DNA of 64,000 nt from a virus (taxonomy: Duplodnaviria > Caudoviricetes), in the IMG/VR virus record IMGVR_UViG_3300021408_000001, positions 1 through 64,000 of that record; one strand, 5' to 3'. This document shows positions 61,745 to 62,935 of the stretch, piece by piece (the stretch's first letter is position 1; every line of letters starts with the position of its first letter). The notes beneath the pieces were generated by a model, which was given only the letters and a program-made list of their open reading frames with translations, did not search any database and was not told where the DNA came from. The translations under genes were made by a program, and so were the position numbers.

Positions 61745-62290
61745 ATGCGTATCTACTATGGGAATCGTGCGGCTGCCGGCATGAATATCTTAGCGAGAAT
61801 TCTATGGGCATCGTGACGGACTTAGCTAAGTGCGTATCTACTATGGGAATCGTGCGTGCTTTGGGTACCGTGACTTCCCGGGCTGGCGTATTAAAGCTGG
61901 GCAACGAGCCTGATTTGGCCAGAATATTATTGCGTATTCGGCATGGATTACGTTGGCCCTATGGCAAGCAACTATATGGCGTGAAGGATCATGGAAATCG
62001 GGCTTTTCATGGCCAATTAACTAGCGTTGCGTTGTTGTACGCAGTATAGGGTGTGGCTAGCGTCTGTTCTATGGGTTTCGTAATCATTCTGGCTAGCACG
62101 GAGGTACAACCTCGCGAATGCGATCTGGATATCGTGGTCTGCCAGGCGAGAAGGACACGGAAATCGTTAGCTCTACGGCCTAGTTACGCAGCGCAATTGG
62201 ATATCGTCTGTTGTTTGGTACGTTCAGGCCATGGGAATCGATGGTAGATTGGTACGTTACTGGCTTGGGAATCGATGGTAGATTGGTACC
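61745..62290 (-). repeat. TIGR-like array R4 (~14 units), directly upstream of the tasA-like gene
   Basis: repeated 9nt-TGGRWATCG-9nt-TGG(C/T)..CG units on the + strand. Confidence 0.9.
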
Positions 62291-62295
62291 TAACG

Positions 62296-62378
62296 TGGGC
62301 CGGACAGGGATCGAACCTGCCATGTCCGAAGACGCCGGATCTACAGTCCGGTGCTACCACCATTGGAGCATCCGACCC
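62296..62378 (-). tRNA. tRNA-Tyr(GTA)
   Basis: GGGTCGG/CCGGCCC acceptor, CCGGA-CTGTAGA-TCCGG arm, long variable arm GTC-TTCG-GAC. Confidence 0.92.
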
Positions 62379-62385
62379 TTATATT

Positions 62386-62556
62386 GAGTGGTTGATGGGC
62401 TATCTCGTCCACCACTCACGGACACATCACATGGCCCACCTTCACGAGTCGCGAGTATCGCACTTATCGCGACCACGTACCAATGCGTTGCCGGTGTGGG
62501 AGCCGGGGCTACGGTGCGAGGTACGGATCTTGTAGGTGCGTTGACCTTGTGTGCAT
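62386..62556. ncRNA. structured element with predicted pseudoknot
   Basis: GAGTGGT/ACCACTC hairpin; CACCT..ACGAG/CTTGTAGGTG, GTCGCGA/TCGCGAC, CGTACC/GGTACG stems; loop TCGCAC complementary to GTGCGA. Confidence 0.45.
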
Positions 62557-62566
62557 AGCGCTCTTG

Positions 62567-62935
62567 TCGGCACGACTACATGATGGATATCGTGTGTTCC
62601 ACGGTGCGCTTCTAGTTAGCGTGACTACCTTGGATGTCGTGATCTAACTTGGCTAGGCGTTCCTGGTATGGGCATCGTGGAAAGAATGGCCAAAGCGTTT
62701 GCCTCATGGGTATCGTCCGCAGCGGGGCTATGGCCTAACTTAATGCGAGTCATGTTCGGATGTCGTCATCACTTTGGCATATCTTAGCGAGGGCTCATTG
62801 GTATACGTTGAAACACTGGCTAAGTGTATTCACTCCGGGTATCGTGGTATGGTTGGCGTGACTACCTAGGGTATCGTGGTATGGTTGGCGACATCTAACT
62901 TAGCATGACTCACCAATGGAAATCGAGTCATTTCC
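62567..62935 (-). repeat. TIGR-like array R5 (~9 units)
   Basis: loop-type repeats at ~62584, 62631, 62669, 62707, 62757, 62799, 62836, 62868, 62917. Confidence 0.88.

Follow-up and report, generated by a model that had tools for sequence, protein, structure and literature searches.

Recent local copying of half-spacers in a large phage-borne TIGR array of the TasA type

Introduction

Why does a guide array built from 9-nt half-spacers use several of these halves more than once, and does such reuse tell how its guides originate? This question is raised by the TIGR arrays of a phage genome, for which a preliminary description based on the sequence had listed several recurring half-spacers. In the founding TIGR paper, both repeats of an array were described as starting with box D (UG) and ending with box C (CCA), the edge repeat having one extra base pair, and the suggestion was made that short repeats might minimize recombination (PMC12045711). 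In this paper and in a later survey, the emergence of TIGR arrays, their expansion, and their gain of spacers were described as an open problem, and adaptation genes as not known (Faure et al. 2025, PMC12045711; Xu et al. 2026, bioRxiv 10.64898/2026.09.09.750476). Here, the repeats and half-spacers of the phage arrays were parsed and compared with shuffled controls, with other assemblies, and with related loci.

Results

Architecture of the locus

The virus record is a single contig of 132,904 bp encoding terminase, portal, and head genes of actinophage type; its first 64 kb are the stretch of DNA studied here (the window). From about 57,830 to 64,112 the DNA is made of seven blocks of short interspersed repeats, and one more block is located at 890–1190, the eight dispersed blocks together containing about 65–70 two-part guides. 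In the RNA sense, the order within a unit is edge repeat, 9-nt spacer A, loop repeat, and 9-nt spacer B. The edge repeat is typically CGCTTAGCCA and ranges in length from 5 nt (CGCCA) to >50 nt, while the loop repeat is typically CGATWCCCA and mostly 9 nt long. Edge and loop repeats alike have CG (box D) at the start and CCA (box C) at the end, and every half-spacer, in slot A as in slot B, is framed by box C (CCA) on its upstream side and box D (CG) on its downstream side. The extra pair of the edge repeat is the C...G in CG-C-TTA-G-CCA. Parsing, for which each half-spacer was anchored at box C, yielded 148 half-spacers and 57 canonical edge-A-loop-B units, whose length of 36–37 nt would fit the size of about 36 nt of tigRNAs. 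The composition of the half-spacers is biased, with A at position 9 in 59% and T or A at position 1 in 74%.

By chain parse, block R2 was assigned to 63455..64000 (minus strand, read in RNA sense; running on to about 64112 past the window), block R3 to 62380..63385 (minus strand), between tRNA-Cys and tRNA-Tyr, and block R4 with 24 parsed half-spacers to 61735..62296 (minus strand), directly upstream of the tas gene. Directly downstream of tas follows block R5 (60495..60935, minus strand), which is homologous to the array of a relative, L012, described below. Block R6 (58900..59195) and block R7 (57820..58112) are likewise on the minus strand, while array L (890..1190) is on the plus strand. 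Interspersed between the blocks are tRNA-Cys (63382–63457), tRNA-Tyr (62295..62378, minus strand; between R3 and R4), tRNA-Leu (60388–60462), and tRNA-Gly (59194–59267). The arrays at 57.8–64.1 kb read CG...CCA on the minus strand, on which tas, the neighboring genes, and the four tRNA genes are also located, and array L reads CG...CCA on the plus strand, co-oriented with its plus-strand neighbor genes. No matches besides the tRNAs were obtained with Rfam, and scans for consensus promoters and terminators found nothing. A CRISPR array was ruled out: There are two kinds of degenerate repeats, 5–12 nt long, the spacer length is 9 nt, and there are no Cas-like matches among the neighboring ORFs scanned. 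In this region, the phage carries a dual-repeat TIGR array that is very large and broken up into fragments; it is read from the minus strand and belongs to an RNA-guided system of the nuclease-less TasA type.

The Tas protein

Between blocks R4 and R5, a tasA-type gene (60928..61713, minus strand) encodes a protein of 261 aa that was identified by sequence match and structure model and consists of a coiled coil and a Nop domain without a nuclease domain. Searching the PDB sequences with phmmer gave 9mty (TIGR-TasR) with an E-value of 3.9e-11, the alignment covering the Nop part only and beginning at chain residue 114, past the RuvC domain. The AF2 model (pLDDT 91, pTM 0.83) has a low-confidence coil at residues 1–28 and helices from residue 29. 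With this model, the top match in Foldseek was again 9mty (E 3e-9, rmsd 2.0 over 224 columns); the best ten matches were all TasR/TasH structures, with E-values from 3e-9 to 1e-5, and next in rank were IS110-family recombinases. Pfam gave no nuclease match in the 261-aa protein, which is of the TasA subtype, since neither a RuvC nor an HNH domain precedes the coiled coil. Elsewhere, TasA proteins have been shown to be RNA-guided DNA binders and repressors.

Inventory of reused half-spacers

All pairings listed in the preliminary description were found on the plus strand. There, TATCTACTA is located at 61750 and 61835, partnered with TGCGGCTGC and TGCGTGCTT; ATGGTAGAT at 62241 and 62275, partnered with TTCAGGCCA and TTACTGGCT; and TGGTATGGT at 62845 and 62877, partnered with TATTCACTC and TGACTACCT. 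The last-named partner is itself reused, as TGACTACCT occurs at 62622 and 62859, the copy at 62622 being partnered with TGATCTAAC. One further exact reuse, of TTGGTCTTA at 64037 and 64076, lies just past the end of the window. Since the arrays, tas, and the tRNAs are on the minus strand, the slots had been swapped, and what had been called an A half is a spacer B in reverse complement and vice versa. Read in the RNA sense, ATCTACCAT occurs twice in slot A (starts 62283 and 62249) and TAGTAGATA twice in slot B (starts 61843 and 61758) of block R4, ACCATACCA twice in slot A (starts 62885 and 62853) and AGGTAGTCA twice in slot B (starts 62867 and 62630) of block R3, and TAAGACCAA twice in slot B of block R2 (64045 and 64084, both outside the window). 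In array L, as had been described, TAGCTGTAA is present twice in slot A (960 and 1033), and GGTAGTCCA is used in both slots, at 1052 in slot B and at 1070 in slot A of the next unit, with a period of 18 nt.

The identity of the copies is not confined to the half-spacers. An exact identity tract of 26 nt (copy 1 at 61746..61771 and copy 2 at 61831..61856, both minus strand) runs from the final 4 nt of spacer A through the loop repeat and spacer B into the edge, of which it includes the first 4 nt. Two exact tracts of 24 nt within 62232..62289 (minus strand; 62232–62255 and 62266–62289, period 34 nt) each consist of spacer A framed by a short edge and the loop, and 5 of the 9 positions are different in the intervening B spacers. 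Similarly, in two exact tracts of 22 nt within 62837..62890 (minus strand; 62837–62858 and 62869–62890, period 32 nt), spacer A is framed by the 5-nt edge CGCCA and the loop. The unit at 62619..62650 (minus strand), composed of AGTTAGATCA and AGGTAGTCA, is a paralogue of 62856–62901, with a 12-nt match at 62619/62856 and a 9-nt match at 62642/62893; in the paralogue at 62856–62901, 14 extra nt lie between these halves, which is the size of one CCA-spacer-CG cassette. Across tRNA-Cys, an exact tract of 20 nt (62700..62719, minus strand) is common to 63693–63712, where a near-duplicate unit is located 993 nt away; these are the near-duplicates at 62698 and 63691 that had already been pointed out.

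Two previously described three-spacer units were also recovered. At 61835..61879 (minus strand), the alternation of loop and edge is broken in a three-spacer run, the first internal repeat of which is the palindromic CGGTACCCA, and a second three-spacer run at 63210..63253 (minus strand) has the internal repeat CGGTACCG. Duplications that are larger and older were found as well. In block R7, three spacers are duplicated with a period of 73 nt (57934–57985 versus 58007–58058, with 1, 1, and 3 mismatches and an exact core at 57954–57976 versus 58027–58049), and in block R2 there is a diverged two-spacer duplication with a period of 118 nt (63872–63918 versus 63990–64036). The copy spacings seen are 18, 32–39, 73, 85, and 118 nt.

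Statistical evaluation and assembly check

Among the 148 half-spacers there are 6 identical pairs, or 7 if one pair offset by one base is included. Column shuffles, in which the positional composition was kept, gave a mean of 0.12 identical pairs and a maximum of 2 in 500 shuffles. One-mismatch pairs were also more frequent than in the shuffles (11 versus 2.65 expected, maximum 8), while the reverse-complement control yielded 0 identical pairs and 1 one-mismatch pair. The copies are neighbors: 6 of the 7 identical pairs are at most 4 spacer positions apart (binomial p 1.6e-7), the index gaps between copies being 1, 2, 2, 2, 3, 4, and 11. Exact identity extends past the spacer into the flanking repeats by a mean of 10.5 nt, compared with 4.3 nt for random same-slot pairs (p 0.003). 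The exact tracts of the reused halves span 12–26 nt with 0 differences, and their partner halves differ at 5–8 of 9 positions (mean 6.8 versus 6.4 for random pairs). For local pairs, i.e. those within 6 positions, 5 were observed versus 0.08 expected with no mismatch, 3 versus 0.67 with one mismatch, 0 versus 3.4 with two mismatches, and 17 versus 16.3 with three mismatches.

Other assemblies were available for comparison. The ENA contig L007 (155.7 kb) is 99.9% identical over 20.8 kb, and its differences, two SNPs and one 18-nt repeat copy, are all outside the arrays. The Logan contigs L008 and L009, obtained from other runs, are 100% identical over 58155–63084 and 58472–61751, respectively. 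Misassembly is therefore excluded, because the arrays do not differ in a single base from those of three other assemblies and the repeated tracts of at most 26 nt are far below the k-mer sizes of assemblers. As no array variation was seen among the near-identical assemblies L007–L009, no event was caught in progress.

Two further ideas were tried and rejected. Tiling of one target by the guides would give sharing of reverse complements, and there are 0 identical reverse-complement pairs. For A-specific (DGR-like) mutagenesis between partner spacers, no such pattern was recognizable on inspection.

Comparison with related loci

A syntenic locus, L010, with 176 spacers and a Tas protein of 84% identity, has 8 identical pairs versus 0.28 expected. 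These are local as well (p 2.2e-7), and their flank extension is 16.5 versus 5.0 nt (p 0.0002). One spacer is present three times in L010 at a period of 18 nt, and a triple of units has the composition (T1, K), (C, K), and (T1, G). The mismatch distribution of local pairs in L010 resembles that of the phage, with a spike at 0–1 mismatches and no excess at 2–3. Among the 150 spacers of L011 (Tas 70% identical), there are no identical pairs, and in about 20 other TasA loci with CG...CCA arrays, comprising about 1,300 parsed spacers, only 4 were found in total. Strong reuse thus occurs in only 2 of about 25 loci. Half-spacer reuse is therefore sporadic and no design rule of the family.

Spacers common to this phage and L010, L011, or L036 (74%; syntenic) were not found, and one spacer match between L010 and L036 is at chance level. 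Scans of viral and metagenome contigs gave only distant relatives with at most 47% identity. A closer comparison was provided by L012, a contig of 1.2 kb with a Tas protein of 85% identity, the tas DNA being 78% identical and its third codon positions only 61%. The array downstream of tas in L012 and block R5 have three collinear exact anchors of 14–16 nt in common. The intervals between these anchors measure 139 versus 233 nt and 115 versus 70 nt, and the spacers inside are unrelated and differ in number. Two more units of L012 match this phage at non-syntenic places, one of them being located just upstream of tas in L012 and about 950 nt upstream of the tas start in this phage. In addition, spacers shifted by ±1 nt are seen in L012, for example GAGGTGAAA versus AGGTGAAAA. 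This comparison shows mosaic turnover by gain, loss, and relocation of blocks, together with conservation of a few guides.

Discussion

Copying of half-spacers and its probable mechanism

The reused halves are recent, local copies made at the DNA level, and their occurrence is non-random. Copying rather than independent origin follows from the facts that the copies are neighbors, that the identity enters the flanking repeats, and that it then stops. Since the identity ends at the adjacent half-spacers, the copied module is about one half-spacer plus parts of both framing repeats. Probably, replication slippage, unequal recombination, or short-patch conversion took place between the box D/box C micro-repeats. 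Such events would move or duplicate cassettes consisting of one half-spacer and parts of the flanking repeats. Each of them would set an existing half beside a new partner, by which halves would be shuffled and no new 9-mers made. Sometimes, the alternation of loop and edge would be broken, giving rise to three-spacer runs, and the two runs described above are exactly the trace that insertions or deletions of half-units would leave. Most copies are presumably by-products of the repeat architecture and not selected guides.

Several points speak against this mechanism. The flanking homology amounts to 5–10 nt, which is short for classical homologous recombination, strong reuse is limited to few of the loci compared, and the arrays do not vary among the near-identical assemblies. 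Single-event models, namely unequal crossover at adjacent loops and tandem duplication of units, were also considered, and neither gave the spacer orders that are present in the arrays. With unequal crossover at adjacent loops, the order X1 Y1 X2 Y1 X2 Y2 would be expected, while the order seen is Z P Q P W, which requires either a conversion or more than one event.

How far, then, does the reuse lead toward the origin of spacers? According to the preliminary description, arrays grow by duplication, slippage, and recombination at repeats followed by point mutation. Copying at the level of DNA, with its junctions inside or beside the short repeats, was borne out by the local copies, the flank identity, the 18-nt tandem copies, and the multi-spacer duplications that have diverged by point changes. 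A role of point mutation as the source of new spacers was not: Because there is no excess of pairs with 2–3 mismatches, the data do not show that new spacers come from duplicates that mutate. Steady duplication and drift would fill the mismatch classes about equally, which is not seen, and the copies are therefore either very recent or lost by recombination faster than they are mutated. They are not visibly the source of the approximately 90% of half-spacers that are unique, and the expectation that the reuse is a clue to how TIGR spacers arise is not supported, as copying only rearranges existing 9-mers.

Alternative explanations

It is unlikely, though worth considering, that the reuse is kept by selection, i.e. 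that guides with a common 9-nt half recognize sites with a common 9-bp half-site or allelic variants of one target, which would be a functional and combinatorial broadening of the target range. In favor of this, some spacers are exactly conserved with L012 although neutral sites are only about 61% identical, and at least some guides are therefore under constraint; in addition, a near-identical B-spacer family, TGGG[A/C]GAA[A/G], is found in three arrays including the inverted array L. Furthermore, a site that pairs with one spacer at 9 of 9 positions and with the second spacer at 6 of 9 has been reported to be still cut on one strand (PMC12045711), and a half-spacer is thus a semi-independent recognition module. 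From the pseudo-two-fold symmetry of the complex, one may also expect the same duplex to be recognized by (A,B) and by (B,A), which would make reuse across slots sensible. However, selection predicts neither a distance of at most 4 positions between copies nor an identity that continues into the flanking repeats, and the searches for targets and motifs do not favor it either. The 132.9-kb genome, with its arrays masked, was screened for both possible target geometries, rc(A)+B and B+rc(A), of 100 adjacent spacer pairs, and in neither geometry did the best matches surpass those of partner-shuffled controls. No 5- or 6-mer was enriched among the spacers of this phage, L010, and L011 over column shuffles, and the 18-mers of two units, the hub unit (ACCATACCA with AGGTAGTCA) and a conserved unit (TACCGTTCG with AATAACGCA), gave one 17-nt match at chance level and nothing else in 50,697 phage records. 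Moreover, most relatives are without reuse. Copying and selection are not mutually exclusive, since the one concerns the origin and the other the maintenance of the reused halves. A broader view is that TIGR arrays diversify combinatorially, with selection keeping useful pairings, and that the exchange of half-spacers is an undescribed route of guide evolution without adaptation machinery. This appears improbable, and combinatorial guide diversification as a systematic strategy, which had been proposed for this locus, found no support, as the partner halves are at random distance and most related loci are without reuse.

Tandem duplication of whole units, followed by ordinary point mutation that gradually yields a new guide, is quite improbable as the explanation of the reuse. 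It would account for the diverged multi-spacer duplications in blocks R7 and R2, for the excess of one-mismatch pairs, and for ±1-nt shifts such as those seen in L012. Nevertheless, all seven exact reuses are without any difference along their tracts, yet the partner halves differ as much as random pairs do, and local pairs with 2–3 mismatches are not in excess. Also, the numbers of spacers between the conserved L012 anchors differ, which point mutation cannot bring about. Chance coincidence or an assembly artifact, finally, is extremely improbable. The spacers are indeed short (9 nt) and compositionally biased, but the composition-keeping shuffles did not come near the observed number of identical pairs, which confirms the reuse as above chance, and both the identity of the other assemblies across the arrays and the shortness of the repeated tracts speak against an artifact. 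Local copying between the short repeats is kept as the best reading.

Concrete traces of how the arrays change are visible at this locus: Half a guide (18 nt) or one guide (32–37 nt) was copied with junctions at box C/D motifs, the alternation was broken, units moved between arrays, and relatives differ by mosaic turnover. A limit is set as well, in that new 9-mers do not seem to stem from duplication and point mutation here. Despite the suggestion that short repeats minimize recombination, rearrangement at the repeats still occurs. The reuse shows how arrays get reshuffled, not where new guide sequences come from.

Comparison with known systems

The system itself is of the published TIGR-TasA kind, and the half-spacer reuse adds evidence on array dynamics. 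Features in common with TIGR-TasA (PMC12045711; bioRxiv 10.64898/2026.09.09.750476) are the alternation of edge and loop repeats around 9-nt spacers A and B, a box D at the start and a box C (CCA) at the end of each repeat, an additional C-G pair in the edge, and phage-borne arrays on both sides of a solo-Nop Tas gene. The protein has the same fold as TasR and TasH, minus the nuclease. Unlike in TaTasR, where box D is UG, it is CG here. Typical TIGR arrays contain 5–15 units, while here the guides are far more numerous and distributed over dispersed blocks with tRNA genes and small genes interleaved; the wide length range of the edges, the three-spacer runs, and the half-spacer reuse are further differences from typical arrays. 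In the searchable, incomplete TIGR literature, no description of half-spacer reuse or array rearrangement was found.

Clustered box C/D snoRNA genes and the tRNA-snoRNA polycistrons of plants and archaea resemble the locus in having short box C/D guides, Nop-domain proteins, and tandem clusters that grow by local duplication and may be co-transcribed with tRNAs. Unlike this system, however, snoRNAs serve as guides in RNA methylation and have K-turns to which L7Ae binds, and their duplicated units are whole genes instead of 9-nt guide halves. The closest known process is the repeat-mediated duplication and loss of CRISPR spacers. In CRISPR arrays, too, units are gained and lost via the repeats without acquisition machinery, resulting in duplicated spacers and in mosaic arrays among relatives. 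The repeats there are identical and 25–36 nt long, whereas here the homology comprises 5–10 nt of a degenerate repeat, and no adaptation genes like Cas1-Cas2 are known for TIGR. Most of all, the module exchanged here is half a guide, so that recombination makes new pairings of A and B and thereby new 18-nt specificities.

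Minimal edge repeats and half-spacer duplication

Several edge repeats are reduced to 5–7 nt, with box D joined straight onto box C: the 5-nt edge CGCCA occurs at window positions 58070, 60585, 62854 and 62886, the 7-nt edge CGTACCA at 62216 and 62250, and CGACCA, of the same 5–7-nt class, at 60850. Edges this short offer hardly any space in which the mid-edge processing known from TIGR could take place. Two same-slot spacer duplicates in this phage adjoin minimal edges, ACCATACCA being next to CGCCA and ATCTACCAT next to CGTACCA, and two same-slot duplicates in the syntenic relative L010 likewise do so. 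The minimal edges may be scars of recombination. The reused spacer ACCATACCA (RNA sense, window 62853–62885) is similar in sequence to the 3′ portion of the loop repeat, cgATACCcA, and slipped repeat sequence may be the birthplace of some half-spacers.

Three near-identical B spacers (RNA sense) were found in three separate blocks, namely TGGGAGAAG, TGGGAGAAA and TGGGCGAAA at window positions 1088, 59128 and 63927, one member being located in the inverted array L, 57 kb off. This family represents either old dispersed copies or a selected half-site.

Comparison with related contigs

The sole differences between the virus record and the 155.7-kb ENA contig L007, one 18-nt repeat copy and two SNPs, fall beyond the window. 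The former belongs to an in-frame tandem repeat with three versus two copies (record 69452–69469; L007 2263), and the SNPs adjoin a run of 13–14 G (record 71355–71362; L007 370–377). In the terminase region of L010, an ORF of 1,179 aa (16149–19688) has a LAGLIDADG match and probably encodes a large terminase with an intein.

In block R5, one long edge repeat can fold into a strong hairpin whose stem spans ~15 bp (window ~60728–60759). No U-run follows it, and the hairpin is missing at the homologous position of the related 1.2-kb contig L012.

tRNA genes among the TIGR blocks

Genes for tRNA-Gly (59194–59267), tRNA-Leu (60388–60462), tRNA-Tyr (62295–62378) and tRNA-Cys (63382–63457) separate the TIGR blocks from one another and share their minus-strand orientation, and a plus-strand tRNA gene with the amber-reading anticodon CTA (1201–1275) adjoins array L. 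This arrangement looks like a natural polycistron combining tRNAs with guide RNAs.
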